64,000 nucleotides of DNA from a virus. The position numbers and the translations under genes were made by a program. The notes below the pieces were generated by a model. That model saw only the letters and a list, made by a program, of their open reading frames with translations, did not search any database and was not told the DNA's origin. The stretch lies in IMG/VR virus record IMGVR_UViG_3300031553_000001, positions 1 through 64,000 of that record; one strand, 5' to 3'. Positions 7,990-26,802 of this stretch are shown piece after piece; position 1 is the stretch's first letter; each line of letters opens with the position of its first letter.

Positions 7990-8178
7990 TCAATCATCCA
8001 TCCAATGATATGTCTTGATCTGCAAATACTGCCCAACCTCGGCATAGACATCGTGCGTCATGACCATGTAGTCCATATTACGTCCACGGATACAATTTAT
8101 GTAGTATACCATACCTGGCATGTACAACTTTCTAATGTCCTTTGGACAACAATAGGTAGCAAGCGTTACATCACTCAT
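7990..8178 (-). CDS. Short ORF, probable truncated paralog of the 12022..12765 glycosyltransferase
   Basis: DVTLATYCCPKDIRKLYMPG resembles GVDFITFCYYGDVEKLHAPG. Confidence 0.35.
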   Translation of the reverse strand: MSDVTLATYCCPKDIRKLYMPGMVYYINCIRGRNMDYMVMTHDVYAEVGQYLQIKTYHWMDD

Positions 8179-8867
8179 GTCAACAGCACTCCAATCGTAT
8201 TCCCCTTGTGCAAGACATCTGGATACAAACTCTTGAGTCCAGGCAGCTCATCCCAATAGCCTACCATAGATTTCTCATCTATGCCCTCTTCATAGAACGC
8301 TTCCGTTATATCGTCACACACCCAAACCGCGTGCTCGGCCAACAATTGACGATACAATCTCCATTCCTGCACAGACTCTGCATAGTGATGGGATGAATCC
8401 TGGAATACTAGACCAATGCGGTAATCATCATCACACATTGTATACAGACGCTCAAGGATGACTGGATCAGTAGACTTACCTACCCAATAGTCATAATTGG
8501 GATATTTGGCAGGCACATCTTCTCCTGGCCCACCATGCCAGTTACAATCTATCCCAATTACTTGGCCACCATAGAATGATGCAGCTGCTGCCATATACGC
8601 AGACGCAACACCAAACTCCACACCCAGCTCCACCGCAATAGATGGCTTTAACAACTCCACCAGGTGGTACAGGAATCTGTAGTAGTTTATCCGCGTACTC
8701 ACATTTGGCTCATATGTTGTGTAGTACGCATCCAACCAGGTATCACCTATAGGTTGTGTGGATAGTTTTACCAGGTCTTCTATTTGCCAAGGTGTTACCT
8801 CATCCATTTTCCAAACCCCATTGGAATTGGATAGTGCATATCCCCATCCACTAATTTCTCTTGGCAA
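8175..8867 (-). CDS. Class I SAM-dependent methyltransferase (Methyltransf_24-like)
   Basis: VELGVEFG motif I; FQDSSHHY and VCDD motifs. Confidence 0.8.
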   Translation of the reverse strand: MPREISGWGYALSNSNGVWKMDEVTPWQIEDLVKLSTQPIGDTWLDAYYTTYEPNVSTRINYYRFLYHLVELLKPSIAVELGVEFGVASAYMAAAASFYGGQVIGIDCNWHGGPGEDVPAKYPNYDYWVGKSTDPVILERLYTMCDDDYRIGLVFQDSSHHYAESVQEWRLYRQLLAEHAVWVCDDITEAFYEEGIDEKSMVGYWDELPGLKSLYPDVLHKGNTIGVLLT

Positions 8868-9415
8868 GGTAATTCATCCCAAAATCGTATCATATCCTCT
8901 GTTGCGCCTGGTGAATTCATAACATCATCACAAATCACCAGTGCCTCATCGGCCAACAGATTACTGTATAAATCCCATTCCATATTAGCATATTTGTATT
9001 CGTGCCAGGCATCTATGTATAGAATGTCTATTGGTGGATACTGTCCCACCTCAGCAACCACAGCACCATCCCACGTCCAGCCGTTTATGTATCTCAAATT
9101 GGGTATGTGGGCATCCACATCTCTAGCAATAGCTTGGGATACCTTGTCCTCACGATGTATGTTAATGGTCAATACCTGGTTAGCACCTCCCACCGCAAAG
9201 TGGGCAGCCGCTATGGCACGCCAACTTCCCAGCTCCACTACTAGATGTGGATGAAATTCCCGTGCTATCAAATAGAACAGTCGGTAGTATGGTGTAGTAT
9301 GTCCAATAATAGGCACCACAGAATTATACAGCGCATCCACGTAAGCATTGCCGGTAGACGGCTCAGAATTGGCTTGGATTATCAAATCCGCAACACGATC
9401 CATGTCAACTTTCAT
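8795..9415 (-). CDS. Class I SAM-dependent methyltransferase (Methyltransf_24-like), paralog
   Basis: VELGSWRA, YIDAWHEY, ICDD, FWDELP shared with the neighbour. Confidence 0.8.
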   Translation of the reverse strand: MKVDMDRVADLIIQANSEPSTGNAYVDALYNSVVPIIGHTTPYYRLFYLIAREFHPHLVVELGSWRAIAAAHFAVGGANQVLTINIHREDKVSQAIARDVDAHIPNLRYINGWTWDGAVVAEVGQYPPIDILYIDAWHEYKYANMEWDLYSNLLADEALVICDDVMNSPGATEDMIRFWDELPCQEKLVDGDMHYPIPMGFGKWMR

Positions 9416-10290
9416 AGTCCCAACATCCTCCTTGTATCATTGACCTTCAACGCATCCAACAATTCATCACGTAGTTCATAGGTAGGTCTGGACACGTGCC
9501 ACTCCATTATATGTGGAATGTTGAACGGGGATTTGCCCACGTTCCACTCTGGATTTGCCTTTTCTTGCCTATACCATTCCCCTACTGGAGTGCCATCTAC
9601 ATTAGGCTCCTCGTGCCACATCGGTGCGTGTAGCGTGCGCTTTCCTATTATATTATCAAGGAAGCCACCAATAGCACTCACATCAAGTATCATCTCCTGG
9701 GTAGGTAATCTCACATAATCGTGGTCAAATTCGCTGCCCCACCGCGTGAACCATCCCATTCCATACTCTGAACACATTATCGCATCCCAAGTTCGATTAG
9801 TGTTCATACCATCACCAACAAAGTTGAATCCGGCAAATTTGTTGGCTTTGGATCTGGTTCCAACCCTGTGAACCGGATGCGGTGACCACTTCATCCTTTG
9901 GAAGTTGTTTTTCAACTGATACCGCCAGAATGTGAGGTCAAAGTGGCCCTCGTCCATCTCCTCTTCCATCCGGAGCAACAGATCCTCGTGCCATATCTCA
10001 TCCGCTTGCCAGAAAATACCTTGGTCATATGTCCAAGCCGCCACACAGTCATTGGCTATATCAGCGAATGCTCCAGCATCTATGTGGGAGAAATTGGTGC
10101 AAATCACCTTGACTCTTGGATTAGCAGCCGCTATCTCATACAACTTCTCCAACGTACCATCGGTGCTGCCAGTGTCCAGGATTATCATCTCATCCACGAA
10201 TGGTAGCAGACTTGCCATACTCTCGAACAGACAGAATGCGCCTGTAAATGTGTTGCGTATGAATGTGCTGGAGGATATTTTATGGCTCAT
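9412..10290 (-). CDS. GT2-like glycosyltransferase
   Basis: DEMIILDTGSTDGT and QADE (DxD-like). Confidence 0.8.
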   Translation of the reverse strand: MSHKISSSTFIRNTFTGAFCLFESMASLLPFVDEMIILDTGSTDGTLEKLYEIAAANPRVKVICTNFSHIDAGAFADIANDCVAAWTYDQGIFWQADEIWHEDLLLRMEEEMDEGHFDLTFWRYQLKNNFQRMKWSPHPVHRVGTRSKANKFAGFNFVGDGMNTNRTWDAIMCSEYGMGWFTRWGSEFDHDYVRLPTQEMILDVSAIGGFLDNIIGKRTLHAPMWHEEPNVDGTPVGEWYRQEKANPEWNVGKSPFNIPHIMEWHVSRPTYELRDELLDALKVNDTRRMLGL

Positions 10291-10330
10291 TTGGTGTCTT
10301 CTTGAATGTCACATTGAGTTTCAGCTTCAT

Positions 10331-10438
10331 TTACTCAGCCTTCTTGGATACTATACGTAAGGTTTTGCGCTTGCGTTGGATCTTCACATCACCCTTTTTC
10401 CATACAAAATAGTATATCCTTGAATCTTTCTTATTCAT
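10331..10438 (-). CDS. 35-aa basic ORF coupled to the ART gene (candidate partner)
   Basis: MNKKDSRIYYFVWKKGDVKIQRKRKTLRIVSKKAE; ATGA overlap with the ART stop codon. Confidence 0.45.
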   Translation of the reverse strand: MNKKDSRIYYFVWKKGDVKIQRKRKTLRIVSKKAE

Positions 10439-11151
10439 ATCACCAACTCCGCCACCATCTCTCTGGTGTATTTACTTGGATCTCTAACATCACTAATAAC
10501 CTTGAATTTGGAACCTTTATTCAACAACAATTCGCTCTCTGTATCCCATCCAGTCACTCTCCATTTATCCATCCATATTGCCTTAGCTCCTTTTGGCAAC
10601 ATTATTTCCATCATCACACCCAATGAATGAGCTTCCGCAATATCCCTCACCATACTAGTCGAGACAAAAGCATCATCAGTAATAATAGCATTTGTTAAAT
10701 CCTCATCATCCTCAAATGTATGCCAACTAAAGCCACGATATACTATCACTGGTTCTGGCAATGCAGCTTCCACAAATACGGAATCCATAACATCTTCCAT
10801 ATATACATCAGGATCAGAATTTAACCTCATCTCTGAATAGCCACCCATCCTCAACTCATCATTCAATGTGGCATAATCATCAGTCTTGTATTGCTGCATT
10901 GCCTCATTTTGCTCATCTGTCAAATCTGTTGGATTTAGTGATGCCTGAGATGAAGCCCAATCATCCGCATTCTTTTCATTAGAAAACTTCAATACATCTT
11001 CACCCTTTCCAGCAAGTTCTTTCTCAGGCTTACCACCTTTAGTAGCTTTACCACTACCTATAGCCCTATGTTTCTCTCCAGTGTGAGTTCCTTCTGGAGG
11101 ACTATACCATCCGCTACTAGAAGATCCTTTGAGTGTGAGTTTCATCCTCAT
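10435..11151 (-). CDS. ADP-ribosyltransferase (VIP2/C3/Alt-like R-S-E clade) with KGSSSSGWY leader
   Basis: YATLNDELR, VYRG, FVSTS, ESELLL catalytic motifs. Confidence 0.85.
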   Translation of the reverse strand: MRMKLTLKGSSSSGWYSPPEGTHTGEKHRAIGSGKATKGGKPEKELAGKGEDVLKFSNEKNADDWASSQASLNPTDLTDEQNEAMQQYKTDDYATLNDELRMGGYSEMRLNSDPDVYMEDVMDSVFVEAALPEPVIVYRGFSWHTFEDDEDLTNAIITDDAFVSTSMVRDIAEAHSLGVMMEIMLPKGAKAIWMDKWRVTGWDTESELLLNKGSKFKVISDVRDPSKYTREMVAELVI

Positions 11152-11156
11152 ATCAC

Positions 11157-12050
11157 CTACTCAGCCTTCATCATCTGCAATCCGTATGTGTCCAATCTAG
11201 GCATCAATCCCAAAGATTTCATCTTGCCCAAATCGTATGTGGTGTTTTTTGGACGCTTAGCCAAACCTGGAAAGTCCTTCAACTGTGCTGGTTGTATTAG
11301 CGAGCCATCTAGCTCCCATACTCTGGCCACCTCCTTCGCAAAACCATACAAAGAGCATATAGTAGCGCCAGCCAAATTGCACGTCCCACACCATTTCAGC
11401 TGCACCATTTTCCAAATCGCATCGGCAGCATCGGCTGCGTACAATGGCTGGGTGATTACATCCTCCACAACACGCATTTGCTTTTCAGCAGTCAAGGCAT
11501 TGACTACATTAGTAACCCAATTCCCCCTTGCTCCAGATGGCGGCCAACCATACATCATAATGGGCCTGACTATTGTCAAATGTGCACTGTCTATGTGATG
11601 TTTGGCTTCGCGCTCCATCATAACCTTGCACCAACCATATGTATTGACTGGTGACAGCAAAGCATCCTCTTTATAAGGTGGAGAATCACCGTGATACACT
11701 GCATTACTAGATGCCAATACTAGCCTAGCTCCATACAGGTTGGTCAGCATTATTATCAAATGTGTACCCAATAGATTGATCTGACAACAAGATGTAAAAT
11801 CATTCTCACAAGCATCCACAGAGTTCTGTCCAGCCAAGTGGATAACCACATCCGGTCTGACCTTCTGAAACATCTGGACCATAGAATCTATGCTTCCCAA
11901 ATCCATATAGTACCCATCAGGGATGGGATGTCTGTGATATGTAGGATATACCTTGTATTTCTTAGGCACACTAGCCAACAGATATTTTCCAAGTAAGCCA
12001 CTGCCGCCCGTTATAAGTACATTAGTCGAGCTCGCCACGATATTCTCCAT
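11157..12050 (-). CDS. rmlD: NDP-sugar reductase, dTDP-4-dehydrorhamnose reductase (RmlD)-like
   Basis: ITGGSGLLG, VIHLAG, YGWCK, RPKNTTYD. Start placed at MENIV (12050). Confidence 0.8.
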   Translation of the reverse strand: MENIVASSTNVLITGGSGLLGKYLLASVPKKYKVYPTYHRHPIPDGYYMDLGSIDSMVQMFQKVRPDVVIHLAGQNSVDACENDFTSCCQINLLGTHLIIMLTNLYGARLVLASSNAVYHGDSPPYKEDALLSPVNTYGWCKVMMEREAKHHIDSAHLTIVRPIMMYGWPPSGARGNWVTNVVNALTAEKQMRVVEDVITQPLYAADAADAIWKMVQLKWCGTCNLAGATICSLYGFAKEVARVWELDGSLIQPAQLKDFPGLAKRPKNTTYDLGKMKSLGLMPRLDTYGLQMMKAE

Positions 12051-12765
12051 GCCAATAACGCCAAGTCTCAGGCAAGATTGCCCTGTACAAATGATGATGG
12101 TGCATATATCTCCAGATGCGTCCCTCCAACATGTAGTAGTATTCCTGAAATGGCTCCCATGGGGCCAAAAATTCCCAATCCCACGGCACGTGAAAATCAA
12201 TGTTGGCCAATCGTTCACGCTCACATAGGAATATCTGTTGGCTATTGTTCTGAGTCAACCTAACTCCGCCAGGTCGAAATCCACCATCAGCTATTTGTCC
12301 GCCTTCTGATGGGGACACTACTAAAATCTCTTTGTAGTGCGTCAATAGGTCAATTCCCATATCTATCCACGATGGATGGCCTGTGCGAATTATGCGACAA
12401 TCATTGTCGCTAAATGCCACGTAATCGGCATTGGACACCTTCAGCCCTATCAGATGATTGATGACGTGCCATTTCCAATAATGCGGTGCTGTTGGACCAT
12501 GTGTCCACTCATCGGCCAATAAATCCTCCTCTGGGATACCAAACTCCGTGAGGATGTTGGGATGATCCTCACTATCCACTATCTGTACAGCAGATGGAAG
12601 ATTGAATGGCGGCAATGGGTCAATTCTACCATGACAACGTTGGCGCACCACTATGACATTATCAAACTCGTATTGATTAGATTCCACCAGACCACGTAAA
12701 TAGCCTGGCGCATGCAGCTTTTCAACATCGCCATAGTAACAGAAGGTGATAAAATCTACACCCAT
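12022..12765 (-). CDS. GT-A fold glycosyltransferase (putative)
   Basis: ADYVAFSDNDC DxD motif; cluster context. Confidence 0.6.
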   Translation of the reverse strand: MGVDFITFCYYGDVEKLHAPGYLRGLVESNQYEFDNVIVVRQRCHGRIDPLPPFNLPSAVQIVDSEDHPNILTEFGIPEEDLLADEWTHGPTAPHYWKWHVINHLIGLKVSNADYVAFSDNDCRIIRTGHPSWIDMGIDLLTHYKEILVVSPSEGGQIADGGFRPGGVRLTQNNSQQIFLCERERLANIDFHVPWDWEFLAPWEPFQEYYYMLEGRIWRYMHHHHLYRAILPETWRYWHGEYRGELD

Positions 12766-13553
12766 CCATAACTCTCCAAATGTGTCTTGTAGCTTGTAAC
12801 TCCAACCAATTCCAACAGGTTATCAGGTAAATAAAGTGGACTATGCTTCCACTCCCAATGATCAGCTTGTAGATGTTCTATGGCCTGCTCCCTAGTCAAA
12901 TATAATGGACGTGTACAATGTAGTGGCACCATCAAATATCTCTCTTCACCGCCCCACAAATTTGCTTGGTTGCGAACTCTAGCAAGCCAATCATCTTTGA
13001 AACAATTAGTCACATCCCACAGAAAGCCACTTGATGGGCTGATAGATGTCAAATGTGAAGCCCAATCATTCGCCAAATGCACATCTGTGGTATGACCTCT
13101 TTTGATAACAGAACCCCTAGGAAACACCCGATGCACCAGCTCTGGATACCAACGAATGCGTTGGAAATTCTGCTCTACCTGTAAGCGGTATACCAAGATA
13201 TTATCATCATGCTTCTTGTGGATATAATGTATTTCATCCCAAACATGATATGCAAGTCCAGGGCTGTATACTTCATCCGCTTCAAAATGCCAAATCACAT
13301 CACCTTTGCATTGTTTATGCAGTAGATGTGCCTGCTCAAGACACGCCCCACCAATTCCAGGGATCCACTTGCCTTGCAGAACTCTAACTCCCAAATTGGA
13401 CAGTACTTTAGCTGTCTCATCGGTAGACTCCATATCCACCACTACCATCTCATCTACATAATATCGTATGGCATCTATGGCCTCCACAAATGGATAACCG
13501 CCTTCCACGCCGTTATGTATGAATGTAAATCCTGACACCAATATTGGACTCAT
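12756..13553 (-). CDS. GT2-like glycosyltransferase
   Basis: GYPFVEAI, DEMVVVDMESTDET, EADE; paralog of 9412..10290. Confidence 0.8.
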   Translation of the reverse strand: MSPILVSGFTFIHNGVEGGYPFVEAIDAIRYYVDEMVVVDMESTDETAKVLSNLGVRVLQGKWIPGIGGACLEQAHLLHKQCKGDVIWHFEADEVYSPGLAYHVWDEIHYIHKKHDDNILVYRLQVEQNFQRIRWYPELVHRVFPRGSVIKRGHTTDVHLANDWASHLTSISPSSGFLWDVTNCFKDDWLARVRNQANLWGGEERYLMVPLHCTRPLYLTREQAIEHLQADHWEWKHSPLYLPDNLLELVGVTSYKTHLESYGWV

Positions 13554-14125
13554 TATGCATCCCCTAATTTAACAACTATATTCACACCCTTCTCTATTAA
13601 CCATTCCAATGAAGCATCAGGACTGAAACCACTAGCTATCAATGCTTTAGCAGCAGCACTTACTCTACGTTCTGCCGCACGAACACCTTGTGTAGTCCCC
13701 GCACGTGCATACGATGCCCCTAATTCATACTCCAGCACCCACAACCTTGTCCAATTATCATAGTCACTAGCTGGTATACCTGCTGCATCAGTTAATATGT
13801 AATGAGCTTCTATACCAACATCCGTTGCATATATACCTGCACCAGGCTTATAAATTATTGAACCATAAGCCATATCTATTACGGATTTTGGAAGTTGCTC
13901 ACCAGCCTTGGCGTGATAATATGTAAGTTCGCCACTATGATATTTCTTGGCCTTCTTGCCCACCAAACGTGCTGTGATAGGCTTCTTCTCAACTGGCTTC
14001 TTGGTAACAGGTTTTCCCTTACCAGCCTTACCACTACCAATAACTCTATGTTTCTCTCCAGTGTGAGTACCTTCTGGAGGACTATACCATCCACTACTAG
14101 AAGAACCTTTAAGTGTGAGCTTCAT
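13553..14125 (-). CDS. KGSSSSGWY-leader protein with unknown cargo domain
   Basis: Starts MKLTLKGSSSSGWYSPPEGTHTGEKHR (ATG 14125 overlaps the upstream TGA), then a Lys-rich linker and ~130-aa domain. Confidence 0.75.
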   Translation of the reverse strand: MKLTLKGSSSSGWYSPPEGTHTGEKHRVIGSGKAGKGKPVTKKPVEKKPITARLVGKKAKKYHSGELTYYHAKAGEQLPKSVIDMAYGSIIYKPGAGIYATDVGIEAHYILTDAAGIPASDYDNWTRLWVLEYELGASYARAGTTQGVRAAERRVSAAAKALIASGFSPDASLEWLIEKGVNIVVKLGDA

Positions 14126-14988
14126 CCCACGCACTCCTTCACAGCCTTGAGTACCATCTTTCTGAAGCCGTATTTGTTGCATATCATATCCCTGGCCCGC
14201 ATACCCATATCATACCACCGCTGGTAATCATCTGCCAACATTTGACGCAACTTACTAGCCATCCCATCATATGGATTGGATATGCATACCTCATCACCCC
14301 AAGGCCACATATCGTACACCTCTTCTGTCAGCATTGGTATTCCATACGCTGCAAACAGTGCCCAACGCAATGGCTCTTGGAATGGATATTGATCTTGATG
14401 TATGTTGAGTGCAAATTTGGAATGCTTTAACACCTCATCACGGTTTGGCGCTTTATCCCAGGGCCAACAATTTGGCCCAATGTATCTGCGGTCGAATTGA
14501 TTATATAACCTAGCCCTACGATCAGACACATATGACATATGGACAAAGTCATAGTGCCGGTAGCTTATTTCCGATGGATGCCCAAGATCTGGATGCGAGC
14601 CAAGCACCACAAATCGCAACATGGATTCAGTTGCCAGTCGCTTATCACTCACCCACACATCGTCTAGCGTGCGCTCATAGATTTTATCTCGATTGACCTT
14701 GGCAAAGTTTCCTACACCATCCAGGCCAGATGTACGCTCCATAACCCAATAGCCGGATGGGCGTTCCAAACACCAATGCACTAGATATGCACTGTGTGGT
14801 TTATCAATTTGGTTGTTGATGTGTGGCTCCCATTCACCATTTATAGGTGTAACGATGTACACCAGTGGCTTACGAACATCCACTTCATCCACATAGCACG
14901 TCTCAAACTGGGATAGCTCTACCAGCTTCCAAAAATCGACATATGAATCATAGTTGTATCTAGTCTTAACGAAAACTATATCCATCAT
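14122..14988 (-). CDS. GT-B-like glycosyltransferase (putative)
   Basis: RDEVLKHSKFALNIH..EPLRW resembles CgeB-type C-terminal domains. Confidence 0.55.
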   Translation of the reverse strand: MMDIVFVKTRYNYDSYVDFWKLVELSQFETCYVDEVDVRKPLVYIVTPINGEWEPHINNQIDKPHSAYLVHWCLERPSGYWVMERTSGLDGVGNFAKVNRDKIYERTLDDVWVSDKRLATESMLRFVVLGSHPDLGHPSEISYRHYDFVHMSYVSDRRARLYNQFDRRYIGPNCWPWDKAPNRDEVLKHSKFALNIHQDQYPFQEPLRWALFAAYGIPMLTEEVYDMWPWGDEVCISNPYDGMASKLRQMLADDYQRWYDMGMRARDMICNKYGFRKMVLKAVKECVG

Positions 14989-15116
14989 TAATCCCTATAT
15001 CTGACAGATATGCCAGCCTTCCCAGATCCAACAGCTCTGTGTTTCTCTCCAGTATGAGTACCTCTACTTGGAGCATATCATCCACTACTAGAAGAACCTT
15101 TAAGTATAATTTTCAT
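14988..15116 (-). pseudogene. Leader-only cassette (MKIILKGSSSSG*YAPSRGTHTGEKHRAVGSGK...) with TGA at the Trp codon
   Basis: Near-identical to the leaders at 25.7 and 26.8 kb. TGA at 15078-15080; no cargo domain. Confidence 0.75.
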
Positions 15117-15987: not shown

Positions 15988-17496
15988 CTATGGCGTTGGA
16001 AGCCACAGTGATCCAGTAGCAGGCGTATCCGTGCACGCCATACCCCAACTTCCAGGCATATAGCTGGGCGCTCCACCAGGCATATAGTCTGGCTGATGCG
16101 TATCCGCTACGATTGGCTGCAGCTTACGCGAGCAGCATACATCCGCGATTCGTGCGCATGCCCAAGGCGCACTCAAGTAGATTTCAGGAGATGTGCCTAC
16201 AAGTGCCTTTCCGCACCACACATCCTCCAGGCCTTTGAACGCAAACCGGCCAGCGTTCTCCACCCTGATTCCAGTTGCGGCATTAAATTTCTTCATCAGG
16301 TTGGCAAAGTCAGACAAATCCAGGTACTCACCATACATGGTATCGCGATTGCCGATGCGTCTGGTCAACAGATAGATGTCGGCGCAGTAGTTTGCATTCG
16401 GCTTGGTAATGGTCAGGGAATCATCGATGATGATTGGAATGCTACGACCAGACTTGAGCGAGATGGTACCAACTACCTTGCGACCATCCCACATAGGGCC
16501 ACCGTTCAAGGATTTTCTGTAGTTCAAGATCTGCGAGCGCAAGGCTTGGTCAGTGACGTCATTGGCTGTAGTGACTCCACACACGCTATAGCAGGCAAAT
16601 GCATCCAGTAGACAGGTCGCCAGGAACCGTGTGGTAAACAGAACCATATCTGTATTTGAGATAGTGCCAATGGTTTGGGCACGATACTCAATGTCACCAG
16701 TTAGTTCTGCCAAGAAGTCAAAGAAATTTCCCCATCCATTGATCGCCCCATCCAGATCGTCATTGTTCCATGGAATCATGTAGGAATCTGCATATGGACA
16801 CGGTTGACCATTGTTATCCGTATAACCTGTCCTGATTATGGATTCCAATCCATTCATCTCATACGCGTTCTGGTGGCTGCCATGCACTGCGTCGTGTGCA
16901 ATGTCCTGGGATAGGACATTCATTATGCCATTCAGCTGCCATTCAAACTCGTCAGTGATGGGAGTGCCATTCACGCGCATTATTCGATCTGTTTCACATC
17001 GCTGTTGTGTGTTGTGTGGGCCAAGTGGGTCAGACTGACGATGATACCACGATGTGTGGCATATATCAAATTGACACTCGCCCCACTCCCATCCTAGTGG
17101 GAGCTCACATGGTGATCCAGCGCCTGTAGTGCAATCTTCAGCACCTTCTCCACGCCACCACGGTATGATCTGCACAACCCTTTTCCAAATCTGGTTGCGT
17201 CGCCATCCAAGCCAGTTGAGGATACCCCCAGTCTCAATTTGCAAACCAAAGATGTCCCCAGCAAAGCATGGATCAAAGATGCTGTTACGACCATAAATGG
17301 TCGGATTGGCCAGATTGGCATACGTGGTGGTCCAGTTTCCCTTCATCTGCGGCGTCATCTGTGACATGATGGGAACGCCACCATTATCACGTCTCATAGC
17401 AGTAGCAGTCTGCATAGTTGCTACTGCTTGAGCAAACCTGGGATCATTGAACATGGTCAACAGGTCTTCTGCCGACAGGTTATCAAACTTGTTCAT
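15988..17496 (-). CDS. Major capsid protein
   Basis: 502 aa following protease and scaffold; EMNGLESII and CADIYLLT motifs resemble HK97-fold capsids; hairpin downstream. Confidence 0.75.
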   Translation of the reverse strand: MNKFDNLSAEDLLTMFNDPRFAQAVATMQTATAMRRDNGGVPIMSQMTPQMKGNWTTTYANLANPTIYGRNSIFDPCFAGDIFGLQIETGGILNWLGWRRNQIWKRVVQIIPWWRGEGAEDCTTGAGSPCELPLGWEWGECQFDICHTSWYHRQSDPLGPHNTQQRCETDRIMRVNGTPITDEFEWQLNGIMNVLSQDIAHDAVHGSHQNAYEMNGLESIIRTGYTDNNGQPCPYADSYMIPWNNDDLDGAINGWGNFFDFLAELTGDIEYRAQTIGTISNTDMVLFTTRFLATCLLDAFACYSVCGVTTANDVTDQALRSQILNYRKSLNGGPMWDGRKVVGTISLKSGRSIPIIIDDSLTITKPNANYCADIYLLTRRIGNRDTMYGEYLDLSDFANLMKKFNAATGIRVENAGRFAFKGLEDVWCGKALVGTSPEIYLSAPWACARIADVCCSRKLQPIVADTHQPDYMPGGAPSYMPGSWGMACTDTPATGSLWLPTP

Positions 17497-17524: not shown

Positions 17525-18229
17525 CTACTCATCGCCGACTGGATTTCCCACAGCCATGTCCGTCAGGGATGCATATGCACGCCCATCAGAATCATAGATG
17601 GCAAATCCTTCCGGTGTGGTTGGCGCTACCACTTGGTTAACACCTGGCTCCGCCTTGAATGCTGTAGGCATCGTTGTTGCCTGTGCCTGTGACTGGGCAG
17701 CACTCCTAAATTGTGCCGCATTCGCAGCCGTTTCCAATTCAGAAGTTCCATCCATCACAGCACGTAGACGGATACGCTGCGCCGGTGACATATCGCCTAT
17801 CACTTGCTTGATTCTAGTGGTATCATCAACGGCCACCTGGTTGAATGTTGCTGCAAACTCTTTGAACATAGTACTCATTGAGTCCACAGTTTCTTTCAGT
17901 TCAGCAACATCAGCCACGATTTTAGCCAACTCTGGCACCTCTATCTCTACATCTTTTAGCATGCCCTGGACTTTGCCAGCCACCGCTTCAGACAGTAACT
18001 CTATAGATTGTGCCATCTCAGGTACAGTAACTTTCGAATCCGCTTCAGGCACATCCAAGGCCTGACGCATAGACGTCATAAATTCCTCGGAGGACATATC
18101 CTTCATCCTCACCAGGTCTTTATCCTCTACACCAGCCAAGAATGCATCTACGACCTCTTCAGGAAGCTCAGCGTCGATCAAACGACTACGCCACTTGCTC
18201 CTGATTTCCTTCATACTAATTTCACTCAT
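17525..18229 (-). CDS. Capsid scaffolding protein (putative)
   Basis: Acidic coiled-coil protein between protease and capsid. Confidence 0.55.
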   Translation of the reverse strand: MSEISMKEIRSKWRSRLIDAELPEEVVDAFLAGVEDKDLVRMKDMSSEEFMTSMRQALDVPEADSKVTVPEMAQSIELLSEAVAGKVQGMLKDVEIEVPELAKIVADVAELKETVDSMSTMFKEFAATFNQVAVDDTTRIKQVIGDMSPAQRIRLRAVMDGTSELETAANAAQFRSAAQSQAQATTMPTAFKAEPGVNQVVAPTTPEGFAIYDSDGRAYASLTDMAVGNPVGDE

Positions 18230-18253: not shown

Positions 18254-19243
18254 TCATTCATTGACAGTGTAGGCTGTAATTGCAGTCTGTCTCACCGCAG
18301 GTTTGTCCGTGACGCTAATATCAAACGTCATTGATTTGAGCACCTGCAATCCAGCCAACATATTAGGTTTGGCGTAATACGTCTTGCACGTTGGACACAC
18401 CGCACCCAACATATAGTTTACCAGTCGAACAGTCAAACCGCTTCCACATTCTGGACAATGGCCTGCTGCCTCAACTGTATAAAAACCTCTTGATACTTTC
18501 CACCTACCAGTATTCCTGGCAACGTTGTCTTTCATAGATTGGGCAAATGCTGTATCATTCCAGATTCCTTTGTCTACCGCCCAATTGCCAATCCTAGCCA
18601 TACTGGTACACTTGCCCAGTTTGAAACCACGTATATGGAATAGCCTCAGTTCTGGATATTCTTTGGTACGCTCTGCACGAGCAATATCCCAATCCATCGC
18701 CTTGGTAGTGAACAGCTCTTGCTGCAAATCCCACGCAGCCGCTGTGGACACTGCCAGCCAGCCATCCTTTCCATCAGCAGTCTTGTATGTAGATAAGGCA
18801 CTACCGTCAGCAGTAATCTGCTTCAACAATGCTTGCAAAGCAAACTCTGCGGATGGGATGTTGCGTAGTGCATCCGTGAGCTCTTTGGTGACTTCCTCTA
18901 CTGACTCTGGTTCACTACTGGATGACTTTGGTTGCATAGCTGCACCGCACTTGGGACACTTAATCTCCATACAAGGCGTTCCGCGTTCGTGCGTTGCAGT
19001 TGCCCCACACTCTGGACACACGCACATATCCACACCGCCATCACCTTGCTTTGGACCACCAACACCTTGGCCCTCCCCCCTATCCTTCTGCTGCACATCC
19101 TCCACGTGTACATACAATGCGCGCAGATGAGCCAATGCATCAGCATGAGTAGGATGGCATTTCACGATTTCTTTTGGATCATCTTTAGTTCCCTTGACCA
19201 CACAAGTCTCATCTTCCCGTTTACGTAAGAAATACGGCATCAC
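18254..19243 (-). CDS. Prohead protease with zinc-ribbon insertions (putative)
   Basis: DLQQELF..LRLFH..KVSRGF..DISVTDKPA pattern like HK97-family proteases; several CxxC pairs; synteny. Confidence 0.55.
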   Translation of the reverse strand: MMPYFLRKREDETCVVKGTKDDPKEIVKCHPTHADALAHLRALYVHVEDVQQKDRGEGQGVGGPKQGDGGVDMCVCPECGATATHERGTPCMEIKCPKCGAAMQPKSSSSEPESVEEVTKELTDALRNIPSAEFALQALLKQITADGSALSTYKTADGKDGWLAVSTAAAWDLQQELFTTKAMDWDIARAERTKEYPELRLFHIRGFKLGKCTSMARIGNWAVDKGIWNDTAFAQSMKDNVARNTGRWKVSRGFYTVEAAGHCPECGSGLTVRLVNYMLGAVCPTCKTYYAKPNMLAGLQVLKSMTFDISVTDKPAVRQTAITAYTVNE

Positions 19244-19899
19244 ACACCTCCCAACCCTATGAATGGCGGAACCTCTACACCTATAGGCACTTCAACAACT
19301 TCCACATGTCCATCTCTGGACAGACAAACTTCACAACTCTCCTTGGCCGGATTAACCACCCAAGTTGCCTGAACTGTCTTGATGCCCTGGTCTGGATCTT
19401 CTCCAAGCACCTCCATGTCCCATATACATCCACACCTATGCCAACACGGTGCAGACTCATCACCTGGGATGTATGGCAATATGATGTTGGGAGTGCGTCT
19501 AACGTTGGGTGCAAAGTACCCCGCTTGTGCCTCATTAGCTAGAGTATTTCCAGCATCACCATACAAATGTGCCCTAGCCTGTATAGCCTTCAATGAAATG
19601 GTATCACGATTATCATAAATGGCCTGAGAAAAGCCATGCACCCATCTGTACTGCTTCTTCAGTTGAGCACCCACCTTGCCCCAATCAGAGGAAGTCATAG
19701 CATCCCAATCACCCTTGCCAATGGCAGCCGAACCAGTCAAATACAAGCGCAATCTGGTACGCATATCCTCTTCCCACATCCCAAGTGTAATACGTCCATC
19801 GTACAGATTCTTAGCCAATGCATCCATCGATCCATTGAAGGCAGTTTTGCGTGCCAATAAGGCTGCTGCCTTAGCTGCATCCGCAATAGGGCCAGCCAC
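19240..19899 (-). CDS. Head morphogenesis (MuF/gp7-like) protein
   Basis: Follows the portal; PGDESAPCWHRCGC and ESCEVC Cys motifs. Confidence 0.5.
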   Translation of the reverse strand: MAGPIADAAKAAALLARKTAFNGSMDALAKNLYDGRITLGMWEEDMRTRLRLYLTGSAAIGKGDWDAMTSSDWGKVGAQLKKQYRWVHGFSQAIYDNRDTISLKAIQARAHLYGDAGNTLANEAQAGYFAPNVRRTPNIILPYIPGDESAPCWHRCGCIWDMEVLGEDPDQGIKTVQATWVVNPAKESCEVCLSRDGHVEVVEVPIGVEVPPFIGLGGV

Positions 19900-21969
19900 T
19901 TAGACACTCTCCACATACGGAGCCAATTCTGGAATAGTTCTCCAAACAGCCATCTCAGCATTGATGGCCTTGCGCGTCACCCGTGCTCCACGATCCACTT
20001 CATCATCGGGGATAGGATGGCCTGATATATTGGGTTCTAGCTCATCCTCTTTCATAACCACATCCAATGCAGGATCAACCACGCCAGCAACCCATTTCTC
20101 CAACGCTGCGTGTCCGTACCCTGAAACGCTTGTATCTTCTGTAGATATGTCACCACGCCTTATGAATTTGGAAACATCTCGTAACACTATAATTCTATGT
20201 GCACTGGCAAACATAGTACCAGGAATATCATGAATCTGTACATCATCTGGATGCACAAATCCTGTAACGACGCCACCACCAGCTTCTGCGTACACTTTGG
20301 CATTGCCTGGAGTATCATAGAAATACACGCCAGGACCAAATTGTCCCTCGGTGCTTGGCCTAATGACTTTCAAACCACCAGGCCCTGTACCTCTAAATAC
20401 GGGAACATATCCCAAACCTTCCAACTGGCTACGTGACATACTACCCAATGCGCCAACTTTCTCTCCAACTCCAATATGCGTACCTTTGGGTGGCCCATAC
20501 CAACCACTAGAGGATGAACCTTTCATAGTGATAAGCTTGGCTCCACTCAACCGGCCAGCACGCCATATAAAGCGTATCACATCTTCTAGATATTCCTTGT
20601 GGATCTCGCCGGATGTGATGGCTATGCGTTCATCTCCAACCACCCACTCTGGAAGCACTTGCTTATCGGCCAGCAGCCGTTTGAACGTCTTTATGTCTAT
20701 GGCAGCTTCACCTGCTTTTGGGAAAGCCAATGGCAAATATGCCTCAATCCACGCCTTGGCGATATTTGCCGCCACCATATCCTCTTCAATATCTTGGGTG
20801 TCGAATTCAAACACGACATCCTCTGGCAACTCAGCATTCAGGCTACGCTCCACCATAGTGATGAATTCTCCACCACCCTTACCTCTGGCCTTGAGATGCT
20901 GCACCTCTGCTTCTGATGCTGTTCCCAGTGCGCCGGTGGAGATAGCCCAAAACTCACGCGTGTCCACACCAAAGTCCAGCGCTAAGGTGTTAACATATTG
21001 TGCCACAACCGTTTGACGGTCAAATGACTCTGGAATGGCTGAGAACGACTGAATAGATATTTCCACCTTGGCTCCAGGGTTGTTTCCCACTAGCCATAAC
21101 ACCTGTGGAAACGTCAAACTGTTGTTCTTCTTACGCTCTGCCTGCCACATCGCAATGGCTTGACGAAATTCTTTGTCAGACATTCCAGTCACGGACGCTA
21201 TACCCTCCGGTGGCAAGTTGGACAATTTCTCAGCATCGTAGTCGTGCAGGGCCATCAATAATTTGGCTGCCCGTGCCGCCCTGGACGTGGCACAGTAGCC
21301 CATCCCATGAGCAACTTCATTGGGGAGGGGCATTGATGCGAAATGGATGAACATTCCAGGCTTATACCAGATCTCCTGATTGGTAGCTGCTGAGTAGTAG
21401 TACATCGGACGCTTGGGATTGCCTGTCATCTTGCAACATCTAGTATCAATGGTAGCCAAATCCGACATCTTGCCCCATTGTCCACCACGCCGCGTCACGT
21501 CCCACCATACACCATTGTCTTGCGTATAGAAATCTATGGCGCTGGTACCAATGAATCCACCCCACTCATTCCCAGACAAATATCTGGTTCTGGACAACAT
21601 CTGGGATACCTGGTTGGCGTTGTTGCGGCCACCTTCCACCTTCCAAGTCATGGCCTGCATCTTGGCCACCATAGAATACACAGCACCAGCCAGGATCGGT
21701 TCTTCCTTCCATATAGCGTCCAACCACCGGCTATAGGCCACAGTGCCACGTTTGGGAATACCATCACTTTTGCCTAATGCCTGGATGCTCATAAACATGC
21801 CAAGCACGCCTGCATCCTCAGATTTGGTGTGCACATCCAGACGGGTGTCAGCTTCACGAGCAGCTTTGAATTGCGCTTCTGGTTCTGGAACAGTCCTCAG
21901 TTGGCGAAATGCTTGCCAGGATTCGCCCAGGTCTGTAAAGAACTCGGCAGCGTTATTCAGCAAGGACAT
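19900..21969 (-). CDS. Portal protein with inserted KGSSSSGWY leader + ART-like domain
   Basis: First long ORF after TerL; GALGTASEAEVQH portal-like region. Insert ~20050-20530 with VFRG..GQFGPGVYFYD..AKVYA. Confidence 0.75.
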   Translation of the reverse strand: MSLLNNAAEFFTDLGESWQAFRQLRTVPEPEAQFKAAREADTRLDVHTKSEDAGVLGMFMSIQALGKSDGIPKRGTVAYSRWLDAIWKEEPILAGAVYSMVAKMQAMTWKVEGGRNNANQVSQMLSRTRYLSGNEWGGFIGTSAIDFYTQDNGVWWDVTRRGGQWGKMSDLATIDTRCCKMTGNPKRPMYYYSAATNQEIWYKPGMFIHFASMPLPNEVAHGMGYCATSRAARAAKLLMALHDYDAEKLSNLPPEGIASVTGMSDKEFRQAIAMWQAERKKNNSLTFPQVLWLVGNNPGAKVEISIQSFSAIPESFDRQTVVAQYVNTLALDFGVDTREFWAISTGALGTASEAEVQHLKARGKGGGEFITMVERSLNAELPEDVVFEFDTQDIEEDMVAANIAKAWIEAYLPLAFPKAGEAAIDIKTFKRLLADKQVLPEWVVGDERIAITSGEIHKEYLEDVIRFIWRAGRLSGAKLITMKGSSSSGWYGPPKGTHIGVGEKVGALGSMSRSQLEGLGYVPVFRGTGPGGLKVIRPSTEGQFGPGVYFYDTPGNAKVYAEAGGGVVTGFVHPDDVQIHDIPGTMFASAHRIIVLRDVSKFIRRGDISTEDTSVSGYGHAALEKWVAGVVDPALDVVMKEDELEPNISGHPIPDDEVDRGARVTRKAINAEMAVWRTIPELAPYVESV

Positions 21970-22499: not shown

Positions 22500-24083
22500 C
22501 TAAAATACTACTCCACTTCCACCCGATGTCTCTTCCCAAAATGCCAATACACAAGCATCTCCATAGTCAGTAGATCGCCCATGTCGTGTCTTCTTACGCA
22601 AGATGTCCTTAGACTCCACACAGATAGTCAAATATCCATGAATGTATCTAGTCTCATATCTGGGAGCAGCCAAATCCCCTAGCAGGTAGTCATTTGGACA
22701 CAACGCTACATCAGCACCACTATCAGGATCTAACATCTCTCGCATATTCCACCATGCAGCATCTCTCACACATCTAAATCTAAACGTTCCAGTCTTATCT
22801 GTACGGGTTGTCCCACCACCCATATAGATCTGAGCCAAGTTCATAGACGGGTTGGCCCAATCTATCTCCTGGGCCAATATATCGTATATGGAAGCACCTA
22901 AACCTGAATCCATCTCAATGTTAGTCAAATGAGCATGCATGGCAAAGGGCTTCAATTTTCCTGCCGACACCGGAACAGACTGTTTGGCATATACATACAA
23001 ATTCTCTAACCTATCCCCTACCCTATCTGCAAATACAGTCTTATCCTCACCCATACGCGCGGAGTCAACTCCAATCACACGCTTGCTCAACCCTGCACCT
23101 GGACTGCCAGCTTTCTCCCACTGCCTATACCGTTCAAATGCAGCTTCAACCCACTCCAATGGAATGACACCTTCACTGGAATCTTGAGCAAATTCTCCAA
23201 GAACGCGATTCTTGTATACTGCTGAATGAACTCCCCACTGGCTCTGGCGTTCCTCTGCCCATTGAGGAGATATGCGATTAGCAGCTATGGCCTCATCCAA
23301 AGTCACATGTCTAACTATCCAATCATCATAACCTGCTTTCTTGGAATGAATGTCATAGAATCTGCCTTGGGGTGGGCCTGGTGTAGATATGGCCAACCAA
23401 AAGCATTCACCACTACCGCCGCCTATGGTCGATGTGCCTTCTGTGGCAAATGCGCCCTCAGCAGCATCCCACATGGATGGCCCAACACTCTTGCTTTCAT
23501 CAAATATATAGAACAACCTACTGGCGTGCGCTCCCTCAATGGATGCGGCATCTCCAGACGAAACAGCAAATGACTCATTCCAACCCATCCCAGACCTGAT
23601 GCGAAGCGAATGGACCATCATCTCATCGTGGGTGTATGGATCACGGCCAATGGTGTTCCAATCCAACAACTTGGCAACTTTGTGAATTTCCGGCCACAGA
23701 AACTTTTCCAACTGCCGCCACACACTAGCTAATGTGGGTGCTGTAGCATCATCCTCAGTGGTAAGGATAACATGATGGACACAAATTGCTGCTATCAATG
23801 TTTTGCCCAGACCATGTGGGCCACGCATAGCTACTCTACGGTGCCCCATATCAAACCAAGCCAAGGCTTCCTCTTGGTAAGGTGCAAATGTTGGTGCTAT
23901 CTTTGGCATACAATCATACACAAACGCCACTCTGTCATCACGGTAGGTGCGTTGGAATTTGGCAAATTTTGTACTATGCCCAACATTTATATAGACACCT
24001 CTGGCAAGGTCAAGCAACCCTTTTTGCTTGCCACCCGTGCCAAGACCTCTTTGGTGCAATGCTACATCTGGAAATACTGTCAA
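22500..24083 (-). CDS. terL: Terminase large subunit
   Basis: Walker A GPHGLGKT, Walker B FYIFDE, ISTP, nuclease IGVDSARMGED and STDYGDA. Confidence 0.92.
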   Translation of the reverse strand: MTVFPDVALHQRGLGTGGKQKGLLDLARGVYINVGHSTKFAKFQRTYRDDRVAFVYDCMPKIAPTFAPYQEEALAWFDMGHRRVAMRGPHGLGKTLIAAICVHHVILTTEDDATAPTLASVWRQLEKFLWPEIHKVAKLLDWNTIGRDPYTHDEMMVHSLRIRSGMGWNESFAVSSGDAASIEGAHASRLFYIFDESKSVGPSMWDAAEGAFATEGTSTIGGGSGECFWLAISTPGPPQGRFYDIHSKKAGYDDWIVRHVTLDEAIAANRISPQWAEERQSQWGVHSAVYKNRVLGEFAQDSSEGVIPLEWVEAAFERYRQWEKAGSPGAGLSKRVIGVDSARMGEDKTVFADRVGDRLENLYVYAKQSVPVSAGKLKPFAMHAHLTNIEMDSGLGASIYDILAQEIDWANPSMNLAQIYMGGGTTRTDKTGTFRFRCVRDAAWWNMREMLDPDSGADVALCPNDYLLGDLAAPRYETRYIHGYLTICVESKDILRKKTRHGRSTDYGDACVLAFWEETSGGSGVVF

Positions 24084-24498: not shown

Positions 24499-24897
24499 TT
24501 ATTCGCGTCTACCCATCTTCTTGCGCAACATATTAGCTCCACTTAGTGGACTAGCCTGAGCCATCTGCCGGATGTTGGGCATCCCAGTAGATGATTGTAT
24601 CGGCGCAATATTGAATGCTGGTGGTTCTACTGTCTGAGTAAACGCTGTCTGGCCTAGATGCTCCAACAAGGAATTTAGCTCTGCTATGGATGCATCCAAT
24701 GGAGCCAGCTCAGCCTTTACCCGCTGCTCCAACTCCACTATTCGTGCCTTGCGAATTTCCAACAACTCAGTCAATCGGTTGCGAATAACGGCAACAGGAT
24801 CAGGCCTGGCAGGCGGTGGAGATTCTACCGCCACAGGTTCTATGTGGGACACAGGCATCCCAGATGGATCACCAGAACCATGGTCAGCTTTTTTCAT
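24499..24897 (-). CDS. Hypothetical coiled-coil protein
   Basis: ATGA overlap with the upstream gene. Confidence 0.5.
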   Translation of the reverse strand: MKKADHGSGDPSGMPVSHIEPVAVESPPPARPDPVAVIRNRLTELLEIRKARIVELEQRVKAELAPLDASIAELNSLLEHLGQTAFTQTVEPPAFNIAPIQSSTGMPNIRQMAQASPLSGANMLRKKMGRRE

Positions 24898-25730
24898 TTG
24901 ACATATCTCGTGCTAATTCCAGCAGCCTCCAGAGCTGATCTGGCAACGGAATATTCCGGTTGTGTCCCATGCATTACTACGTGATCTATGTCAGACAATT
25001 TGATTCCACCATGGATCTGAGCTTCTACGTAATTCACAACTTGGAAGGCATCATCATGTACATACATGGAACTCAAATCCCAAGATAGCTTACCAGGATT
25101 ATTGACAGGAGTAGCCCCAACTTCACCATCAGCAAAGCCACCAAAAGAATCTCCCACCGTGAAGGTAGTGCGGTTTCGTATAGAAGACTTCAATACAAAC
25201 TCTACAGCTCCATATTGCGTAACCCCACGATCTGTATACCCAGGATTGCCCATATATCCATATATGGGATAGTTTGCTGGATCCTCCCCTGGTTTAACGT
25301 TGAATGCCTTGGACTCAACCTTCTGTCTGAGCTTTGGATTGTATGCACCCTTAGATTTGCCAGTCTCATATTGATTCTTGAATCTGCCAGATTCTAGTAT
25401 AGATTCCACTGCCATAACTGGAGCACGTATAGATACAGCAGACTCACTCAAGAACTTTTCCATATTCTTTTGGCATGTAGCTTCATATTCCTTTATACCA
25501 ATATCTCTCAAATAAGCACGTGACTTAGTGCTATTATCGACAGCATCCACTAATTTCTGAGATGGAGCACGTATTGCACGTTCTGCCAAGGATTTACTTA
25601 CAGCTGGCTTCTTGCCGCGTGCTTTACCACTCTTCCCAGATCCAATAGCTCTATGTTTTTCACCTGTGTGAGTACCTCTACCTGGAGCATACCAACCAGA
25701 ACTAGAAGAACCCTTGAGCGTAATCCTCAC
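24894..25730 (-). CDS. KGSSSSGWY leader + DUF3626-like domain
   Basis: GRFKNQYETG, YPIYGY, YGAVEFVLK, RTTFTVGDS, YVEAQIHGG. Confidence 0.7.
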   Translation of the reverse strand: MRITLKGSSSSGWYAPGRGTHTGEKHRAIGSGKSGKARGKKPAVSKSLAERAIRAPSQKLVDAVDNSTKSRAYLRDIGIKEYEATCQKNMEKFLSESAVSIRAPVMAVESILESGRFKNQYETGKSKGAYNPKLRQKVESKAFNVKPGEDPANYPIYGYMGNPGYTDRGVTQYGAVEFVLKSSIRNRTTFTVGDSFGGFADGEVGATPVNNPGKLSWDLSSMYVHDDAFQVVNYVEAQIHGGIKLSDIDHVVMHGTQPEYSVARSALEAAGISTRYVK

Positions 25731-25971: not shown

Positions 25972-26802
25972 CTACCTCTCATCACGCGTCACAGATATAC
26001 CAGCTGCTTCCAAAGCAGCCGTCGCACGATAATAATATGATATAGCAGCACTTCTAGTATGCATTACCACGTGATCTACATCAGCCAAACTAATTCCACC
26101 GTGAATTTGTGCTTCCACGTAGCCTACTCTATTGAACTGATTTTCATACACATACCTGGCATTTCTGTCCCAAGACATCTTGCCTGGTTTGTTGACAGGA
26201 GTAGCTCCAACATTGTCATAGGCAAAATTACTCAGTGAATCCCCTACCGTAAAAGTGGTACGATCTCTGACAGATGACTTCAATACAAATTCTACATCTC
26301 CATACATTCGCGCTGTCTTTGGATTACTGGGATGACTCATATATCCATAGATGGGATAACTTCCTGGTTCCTCTCTTACCTCTATGTTGAAGGCTTTGGA
26401 TTCCGCTTCTTGCCTATATGTTGGGTCATAAGTACCTCTGGATGTAGTAGTTTCGTGTTGATTCTTTAATCTACCGGATTTTAGGATAAATTCTACTACT
26501 TCGGTAGGCGTTCGTACAGATACCTCTGATTCACTGAGAAATTTCTCCATATTTCTCTGACATTTAGCTTCATACTTCTTTGTACCCATCCCCGATGTCT
26601 TGCCACCCATGACGATCTGCCTATCAACAGTCATCCATAACTCTCCAGATGGAGTATGTACCATACGTTCTGCCAAGGATTTCTCGGTAGGCTTCTTACC
26701 AGCCTTACCAGATCCAACAGCCCTATGTTTCTCACCAGTGTGAGTACCTCTACCTGGAGCATACCATCCGCTACTAGAAGAACCTTTGAGTGTGAGCTTC
26801 AT
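25972..26802 (-). CDS. KGSSSSGWY leader + DUF3626-like domain, paralog
   Basis: Same motifs as 24894..25730. Confidence 0.7.
   Translation of the reverse strand: MKLTLKGSSSSGWYAPGRGTHTGEKHRAVGSGKAGKKPTEKSLAERMVHTPSGELWMTVDRQIVMGGKTSGMGTKKYEAKCQRNMEKFLSESEVSVRTPTEVVEFILKSGRLKNQHETTTSRGTYDPTYRQEAESKAFNIEVREEPGSYPIYGYMSHPSNPKTARMYGDVEFVLKSSVRDRTTFTVGDSLSNFAYDNVGATPVNKPGKMSWDRNARYVYENQFNRVGYVEAQIHGGISLADVDHVVMHTRSAAISYYYRATAALEAAGISVTRDER

Follow-up and report, generated by a model that had tools for sequence, protein, structure and literature searches.

We analysed a window of 64,000 nucleotides, the first 64 kb of the IMG/VR virus record IMGVR_UViG_3300031553_000001, which comes from an uncultured phage, is 77,754 bp long, has direct terminal repeats and is rated 100% complete. 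Within this window, a minus-strand open reading frame (ORF) encodes a protein that is, on its modelled fold, a phage portal protein, and that carries in its C-terminal linker a segment made of a short leader, also found at the start of free ORFs of the same genome, and a domain predicted to have an ADP-ribosyltransferase (ART) fold. Phages inject enzymes together with their DNA, and how such cargo is chosen, counted and released is understood just for T4 and a few giant phages. Here, within a single genome, effectors encoded by free leader-tagged ORFs are linked to one that forms part of the portal, through the same leader and the same candidate protease motif. The features of the portal gene are listed below, with residue numbers in amino acids (aa).

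19900..21969, minus strand: portal protein gene, an ORF of 689 aa whose AlphaFold2 (AF2) model matches portals
20521..20532, minus strand: ITMK, aa 480-483, proposed left cleavage motif, which aligns with LTLK/ITLK of the free leaders
20455..20520, minus strand: aa 484-505, GSSSSGWYGPPKGTHIGVGEK, the part of the insert that forms the leader; identity to the leader of ORF 13553-14125 is 68%
20128..20409, minus strand: ART-like domain core, aa 521-614, predicted from AF2, Foldseek, VIA-align, BFVD and the family profile
20050..20061, minus strand: VVMK, aa 637-640, proposed right cleavage motif, native to the portal linker
19903..20049, minus strand: conserved portal C-terminal tail, aa 641-689, with the pattern NIxGxPIPxxEV...W...L

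A divergent portal protein identified by its fold

The identity of the portal had to come from structure, because a profile of 120 portal sequences searched against PDB sequences gave nothing useful. The AF2 model, built on 120 homologues, has 98 PDB matches at E<=0.001 in Foldseek, and all of those listed are portal or neck entries, including the portals of phage 812, a gene transfer agent, HK97, G20c and Mu (best E 3e-10, probability 1.00). Neither Pfam nor PHROGs contains a match for this protein, so we regard it, on the strength of the model, as a member of a divergent portal family. A tblastn search with the portal against 50,697 GenBank phages gave no match, and a protein database search recovered 139 homologues, the closest of which are 60-69% identical, are 530-580 aa long and cover about 70% of the query. 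The tail that follows the insert is well conserved in the homologue alignments (I648, G650, P652, I653, R660, G661, W676 and L682 are invariant or nearly so), and its predicted local distance difference test (pLDDT) values in the full-length model are 74-92.

An insert in the portal linker

A first-pass annotation, made from the sequence alone, had proposed that the portal contains an ART-like cassette bounded by Met-Lys sites, and all of the strings it quoted occur in the portal, the capsid protein and the free leaders. In the portal these are ITMK|GSSSSGWY at aa 480, VFRGTG at aa 524, GQFGPGVYFYD at aa 542, AKVYA at aa 557 and VVMK|EDELEP at aa 637, and the segment between the two Met-Lys sites spans aa 484-640 (window 20050-20520). 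Alignment with related portals shows that this segment is an insert and not a core portal structure. It lacks a counterpart in 118 of the 120 homologues, which have a short variable linker instead, and in alignments of 20 and of 120 sequences only the window protein has residues of the insert between a G(R/K)L...L block and the NIxGxPIPxxEV tail. The linker of the relatives at this position consists of 20-40 variable residues, even in those that are 60-69% identical. When a homologue without the insert was searched against the phage genome with tblastn, the alignment was broken at 20059-20538, and the same search indicates that the portal gene is present in a single copy in the complete genome.

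Other members of the family also carry additional material at this place. Homologue P0033 has a 2H phosphoesterase domain (PF13563) at the same spot of the linker, and the linkers of P0062 and P0034 contain leader-like strings (IVEKGGLGSGN.. and ETLKGGSSWES) with no domain. From these alignments, the C-terminal linker of this portal family looks like a hot spot for insertion.

The insert has a predicted ADP-ribosyltransferase fold

A search with the insert alone recovered 42 relatives among 1.8 billion cluster representatives, comprising small free-standing proteins as well as modules within large proteins. The AF2 model of the insert, for which 29 relatives were used, has a mean pLDDT of 83 and values above 90 in its core. 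Its top Foldseek matches in the PDB are all ARTs, namely PARP1/2, tankyrase, exotoxin A, cholix and diphtheria toxin (E 0.018-0.2, probability up to 0.99). Comparison with tankyrase 2 in VIA-align gave a Z score of 7.2 with a root-mean-square deviation of 3.8 A over 105 aligned residues, and diphtheria toxin, exotoxin A, PARP1 and Tpt1 followed at most 1 Z unit behind; a Z score near 7 is middling when taken alone, and the case is made by the uniformity of the matches together with the sequence signal. In BFVD, a library of viral structures, the top matches are PARP-domain proteins (best E 4e-4) and PolyVal ADP-ribosyltransferase entries.

The sequence signal is found in several forms. The insert contains the NAD-pocket signature GxGxYF...A/S..Y, located on strand 2 and the following helix, and the profile of the insert family (GvyGpGvYFYtnpldArsyA) aligns with the corresponding signature of tankyrase-1 (GMFGAGIYF...SKSNQY), with a best E of 0.16. 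Within the family of 29 members G542, G545, G547, Y549 and G565 are invariant, and Y551 and A557 are present in 28 of 29. The Pfam family PF18760 (ART-PolyVal) matches 12 of the 29 members at E<=1, with a best E of 8e-7, over the N-terminal half of the model (strands 1-2 and the following helix). We therefore assign the insert confidently, as far as a predicted structure allows, to the ART fold and to its PARP/diphtheria-toxin-like side, and this part of the first-pass annotation is upheld, including the PARP-type signature GxGxYF...A..Y. The annotation had also likened the domain to DarT, but the structural and sequence matches listed include no entry for DarT, and a DarT-like identity was rejected on that ground.

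ART-PolyVal has been described with an H-Y-D catalytic triad (PMC5512222). Its clade (PF18760 ART-PolyVal/Tox-ART-HYD2) resembles our domain in having the ART fold and in having members in the cargo proteins of phages and conjugative elements, and differs from it in the triad, which would read R-Y-(D?) here, and in that the present domain is compact, its core comprising about 95 residues. When the insert family was compared by hhalign with the bona fide ART-PolyVal domain found in P0149, nothing aligned, so that sequence comparison did not place the H-Y-D positions. The candidate active-site residues of the insert are R526, Y549/Y551, and either D598 or E611. We file the insert as a divergent ART-superfamily domain close to ART-PolyVal, outside PF18760 membership.

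A leader shared with free cargo genes

The first 22 or so residues of the insert are the leader of four other ORFs in the genome, all on the minus strand, and one further copy is broken. The five free copies are as follows.

10435..11151, minus strand: leader plus ADPrib_exo_Tox (R-S-ExE) ADP-ribosyltransferase; PF03496, E 2.4e-24; G+C content at third codon positions (GC3) 0.34
13553..14125, minus strand: leader plus a cargo domain of unknown kind; no significant Pfam match; GC3 0.28
24894..25730, minus strand: leader plus DUF3626 cargo; PF12294, E 1.7e-12
25972..26802, minus strand: leader plus DUF3626 cargo, a paralogue of the former; PF12294, E 1.3e-10
14988..15116, minus strand: leader remnant without cargo, in which the Trp codon of GWY reads TGA

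The shared element is KGSSSSGWYxPxxGTH, and the free ORFs have the consensus MKLTLK-GSSSSGWY(S/A)P(P/G)xGTHTGEKHR..GSGK, beginning (MK)LTLK|GSSSSGWY or ITLK|GSSSSGWY. The free leaders with TLK|G noted in the first-pass annotation are thus real, and the insert begins with the same leader as the free cargo ORFs. In the portal this leader is predicted to be disordered. An alignment of five leader copies at the DNA level shows that they differ synonymously, including switches between the TCN and AGY serine codons, which points to selection acting on the leader peptide. The five or six copies are about 75-85% identical in DNA, as judged by eye, over about 70 nt, and mean column identity is 70% over a wider aligned stretch. 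A possible relationship between the insert and ORF 13553-14125 as paralogues beyond the leader was considered and ruled out, the leader alone being alignable.

The insert resembles the cargo genes in codon composition as well. Its GC3 is 0.33, compared with 0.28-0.35 for the four cargo genes, 0.55 for the body of the portal gene and 0.53 for the capsid gene. In GC3 the insert matches the cargo genes and not the portal body, an independent signal that places its origin in the cargo gene pool. We interpret the insert as a leader-tagged cargo cassette that is probably carried in the capsid.

The exact leader of the window is rare, being found in 7 proteins among 5.8 billion, 4 of which are this phage's own; the other 3 have PI3_PI4_kinase or DUF3626 Pfam matches. 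Two metagenome proteins, P0166 and P0168, carry the GSSSSGWY leader ahead of a PI3_PI4_kinase match (PF00454), and would add a kinase-like cargo to the repertoire. The remnant at 14988-15116 reads MKIILKGSSSSG, a stop, and then YAPSRGTHTGEKHRAVGSGKAG.., with a second stop about 40 codons on, immediately ahead of where ORF 14122-14988 begins; this copy is a cassette that has decayed or else an oddity involving read-through. At 13553-14182 on the minus strand the longest ORF begins 19 codons before the MKLTLKG leader, and the leader Met at 14125 is the likelier start by analogy with the other copies. The two leader-tagged DUF3626 paralogues (24894-25730 and 25972-26802, minus strand) lie in tandem upstream of the terminase region.

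The domain and related leaders in other phages

The exact leader pattern of the window was absent from 13 related viral loci, where a KGGxGSGxxGHxGRPG leader is used. In these related phages, whose portals are 37-63% identical to that of the window, the sister leader reads MK(L/F)T(I/L)R(F/L)K-GGxGSG(N/H)(F/H)GHxGRPGxxGGS and is located at the N-termini of many ORFs and between the domains of large proteins adjoining the portal. Contigs in which (MKLTIRF)K-GGxGSGNFGHxGRPGxxGGS occurs on many ORFs and at inter-domain junctions are L003, L005, L007-L009 and L011-L013. Literature searches for the GRPG-type motif returned only unrelated papers, and we came across none describing these leaders.

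Copies of the ART-like domain are found in similarly bracketed contexts elsewhere. In P0145 the domain lies between KGGKGSGFHGH leaders; in P0123 and P0124 it lies between KHLPGxH.Q.(T/L)H motifs, with P0124 also ending in an ADPrib_exo_Tox domain; and in P0170 it lies between FITxxGxVIPIGG junctions, beside a 2H domain and an HEMMH motif that appears by eye to be of zincin type. It is also present inside P0136, an unrelated portal of the PF04860 type, where about 120 further residues follow it. The insert is 52-61% identical to free-standing and polyprotein copies of the domain. A search for related loci in viral contigs with P0121 gave no match. The window portal carries a single effector domain, one short of the two or more that define a polyvalent protein (Iyer et al. 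2017), and relatives of its ART-like domain do occur in true polyvalent proteins (P0130, P0145, P0149 and P0170). Given these several bracketed contexts and the unrelated portal P0136, the ART-like domain is, as its sequence relatives indicate, a standard module of phage head-cargo and polyvalent proteins that has apparently joined two portal families independently.

The head module and a candidate lysine cleavage motif

The portal gene is part of a head module whose gene order (TerL, portal, 219-aa gene, protease, scaffold, capsid) recurs in related viral contigs. Its other members are listed below.

22500-24083, upstream of the portal: large terminase TerL, 527 aa; phrog_2, E 2e-29
19240..19899, minus strand: conserved head-module gene downstream of the portal, 219 aa; phrog_24776, function unknown; adjoins the portal in all related loci
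18254..19243, minus strand: probable prohead protease, 329 aa; Peptidase_S78-like C-terminal half, with zinc ribbons (Pfam)
17525..18229, minus strand: probable scaffold protein, 234 aa; role suggested by position and composition
15988..17496, minus strand: major capsid protein, 502 aa; PQMK|G at aa 49-53 (window 17338-17352)

The product of 19240-19899 is possibly MuF-like, judging from a Cys-rich C-terminal motif seen by eye and from gene position. The 18254-19243 protein is a probable S78-type prohead protease at the level of a lead: its Atlas feature matches are S78 clusters (0.86-0.87), its structure rows are S78 clusters with a template modelling score by row of up to 0.62 over aa 127-319, and its gene is kept between the portal and capsid genes in related loci; a Pfam search at E<=0.1 gave no S78 match. 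The capsid protein has Atlas feature matches of 0.96-0.98 and clusters with SU10_MCP, and its structure rows are major capsid protein clusters; Pfam and PHROGs gave no match for it, nor did phmmer against PDB sequences.

According to the first-pass annotation the cassette is bounded by sites at which the prohead protease would cut after (M/L)K. Both Met-Lys sites do lie at the borders of the insert, and they are the only two Met-Lys dipeptides in the whole portal, although this count is weak evidence when taken alone, as the motif was picked after the fact. On the two borders the annotation needs correction. The right site, VVMK|E, belongs, on sequence comparison, to the native portal: homologue P0003 has DVVLLKE at this place, with DVVLLKEAADDKPDIRG corresponding to DVVMKEDELEPNISG in the window. 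The left site may be part of the cassette, since ITMK is homologous to the LTLK of the leader. In the full-length model each site borders a stretch with pLDDT below 50 (aa 483-510, with ITMK at its edge, and aa 628-649, with VVMK inside).

A motif of the same type persists across the portal family. Hydrophobic-K-[QEDG] occurs 8-28 aa ahead of IxGxPI in 71 of 107 portal homologues, compared with about 12% expected from the rest of the proteins, a count that should not be read as a probability because the sequences are related. Among homologues P0002-P0120, hydrophobic-K-[QED] is retained in the otherwise variable linker in 71 of 107, which suggests that the whole family may be processed at this motif or that a short structural motif is located there.

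Similar motifs are found in the capsid and scaffold proteins. The capsid has PQMK|GNW at aa 49-55, as the first-pass annotation had recorded, and in eight related capsid proteins the residues that match QMK|G in the alignment are [FLY]K[EA], with the first conserved block following about 12-17 residues later; homology of the capsid protein to its relatives begins at aa 42-67, mostly 60-67, that is, after QMK|G. The scaffold contains 7 hydrophobic-K-[GEQDAS] triplets against 1.66 expected, a number reached in 0 of 2000 composition shuffles, and the terminase contains none in 527 aa. The pre-sequence before K|G in the leaders (MKLTLK or MKLTIRFK) is only 6-8 residues long, yet it is conserved across phages, as a protease that needs residues upstream of its cut would require. 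The literature on T5 and on proteases of the cyclic-oligonucleotide-based antiphage signalling system (CBASS) provided nothing on Lys specificity. Cleavage after Lys at both portal sites is plausible, with the chances roughly even, because the N-terminal part of the capsid protein and the scaffold have similar motifs and a probable S78 protease is encoded beside them.

Proposed release of the insert and alternative explanations

Our preferred reading, to which we give an even chance, is that the insert is a leader-plus-ART module in the portal linker that is freed by the prohead protease and delivered with the DNA. In this reading the only portal gene has received a leader-plus-cargo module, in frame, within its C-terminal linker, which is variable and flexible. 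The C-terminal part of the portal faces the capsid interior, so each virion would hold about 12 enzyme copies where the DNA channel opens to the interior. We infer that the S78-type prohead protease, encoded two genes downstream, would cut after hydrophobic-x-hydrophobic-Lys on both sides (ITMK|G and VVMK|E), and that it would process the scaffold, the N-terminus of the capsid protein and the free cargo proteins that bear the leader in the same way. Once released, the enzyme (about 17 kDa) would exit the head together with the DNA and modify host targets by ADP-ribosylation at an early stage of infection.

A number of observations weigh against this reading. The proposed Lys motif is a short one whose definition followed inspection of the data, and the assignment of the protease is itself at lead level. 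In distant portals the motif lies within an apparent amphipathic helix (..EYLKQKEDEIF..) and could be structural. Cutting at two sites would also detach the highly conserved 49-aa tail of the portal, and the 2H insert of P0033 has a convincing motif (VYK|EQ) on its right side alone. The leader is conserved for about 30 residues downstream of the proposed cut, and it may for that reason be a docking signal, with the true cut possibly elsewhere. As for the enzyme, the insert scores 13.6 bits against PF18760 (E 0.12), below the gathering cut-off of 31.2 bits; the strand-1 His position is Arg (F/Y-R-G) in all 27 family sequences covering the column; and no acidic residue that could be the catalytic acid of strand 5 is invariant in the family, position 598 being D in 22 of 29 and position 611 E/D in 22 of 29. 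Because of the low Pfam score, the Arg in place of His and the missing invariant acid, ADP-ribosyltransferase activity is predicted but not assured.

An alternative is a portal that is never cut, in which the ART would remain covalently attached as a tolerated loop of the portal crown and would either act there, for example on a packaged protein or on the DNA during packaging, or simply decorate the inner portal. In favour of this, the conserved tail follows the insert in frame and is modelled as if packed on the portal body, the unrelated portal P0136 also has the domain internally and continues beyond it, the hydrophobic-K-[QE] of distant homologues may belong to a structural helix, and cleavage is not known to be needed in the published fusions of effectors to portal or MuF proteins (PMC5512222). 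However, host targets are out of reach for an enzyme that stays locked in the capsid, and the insert has retained the full leader that marks free cargo proteins. Both flanks are moreover predicted to be disordered and carry the Lys motif of the capsid N-terminus and scaffold, and the domain is bracketed by leader motifs in polyproteins; we consider permanent attachment unlikely. We find it distinctly less probable that the leader is a docking or capsid-targeting signal, or a recombination handle for cassettes, with processing, if any, elsewhere (such as behind the leader) or by another protease and the Met-Lys flanks incidental. In its favour, the leader stays conserved for about 30 aa beyond K|G, the T4 targeting sequence is upstream of the cut (PMC5512222), the five or six leader copies are similar enough in DNA to recombine, and the linkers of P0062 and P0034 have leader-like motifs without cargo. 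Against this, the short pre-sequence conserved across phages has just the length needed to provide a protease with residues ahead of its cut, internal polyprotein copies retain the hydrophobic-x-hydrophobic-K prefix, and the Lys motif is also present at the capsid N-terminus and in the scaffold, both of which are leaderless.

It is very improbable, in our view, that the insert is an inactive or decaying passenger acquired by accidental recombination and devoid of a function of its own. The Arg in strand 1, the lack of an invariant catalytic acid and the Pfam score under threshold would agree with this, and the broken leader remnant indicates that cassettes do decay in this genome. The reading frame is nevertheless intact in the only portal gene of a complete genome, the five family-invariant residues together with R526, Y551 and A557 are all kept, the insert model is confident, and the domain has 52-61% identity to its free-standing and polyprotein copies and appears to have been fused independently to a second portal family.

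The preferred reading, release of a leader-tagged ART from the portal, can be extended into a broader scheme that we put forward only tentatively. The linker of this portal family may be a general cargo slot with protease sites, in which all members would be cut at hydrophobic-K-[QE] and into which leader-tagged cassettes would recombine (ART here, 2H in P0033, empty leaders in P0062 and P0034). Exactly twelve effector copies would then be positioned at the inner mouth of the DNA channel and be the first to leave, a portal-templated, fixed-number route distinct from the scaffold-core targeting of T4.

Comparison with known systems

Fusions of ART, 2H and PBECR domains to portal or MuF proteins have already been published (PMC5512222, PMC9503650), so ART-portal fusions as such are not new. 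The published portal- and MuF-fused effectors and polyvalent proteins (Iyer 2017, PMC5512222; 2022, PMC9503650) resemble the present case in that an effector joined to a head protein is packaged and travels with the DNA. In the window portal a single effector domain is inserted internally, in the C-terminal linker with the portal tail retained, and this internal position is new. Also new are the common leader, through which the portal insert is linked to cargo genes that stand free in this phage, and the conservation of a Lys motif in the portal linker across the family. The motifs that flank the insert resemble prohead-protease sites, whereas the two published studies invoke either zincin-like peptidases or no processing at all, and leaders of this kind are not described in them.

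The capsid-targeting system of T4 (IPI-III, the ART Alt and gp21) is similar in that unrelated cargos have a common short N-terminal leader tied to a protease motif and are packaged and injected; Alt is an ART packaged in the head and injected with the DNA (PMC5512222). The protease is probably of S78 type here and of gp21 type in T4, and the motif would be cut after Lys here and after Glu in T4. In contrast to T4, the conserved residues of the leader follow the proposed cut, and one of the modules is not free but embedded within the portal.

Portals are processed in other phages, as with lambda gpB, which is converted to gpB*. In SPN3US the portal gp81 is cut by the prohead protease gp245 (PMC10052503). 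Both resemble the present proposal in that the portal is a substrate of the maturation protease, and both differ from it in that an N-terminal propeptide is removed, whereas the cuts proposed here would excise an enzyme domain from within the portal, close to its C-terminus. A real cut would define the cleavage rule of a widespread unannotated head module, in which the portal, the capsid protein and the protease have no identifying Pfam or PHROG match, and would make the portal a carrier that releases a fixed dose of ADP-ribosyltransferase. Such cleavage would also provide a means of introducing foreign proteins into the heads of phages.

Downstream of the head module, at 6253-13553 on the minus strand, glycosyltransferase-like and nucleotide-sugar-epimerase-like genes (phrog_13126, phrog_540 and phrog_841) are interleaved with leader-tagged cargo genes.

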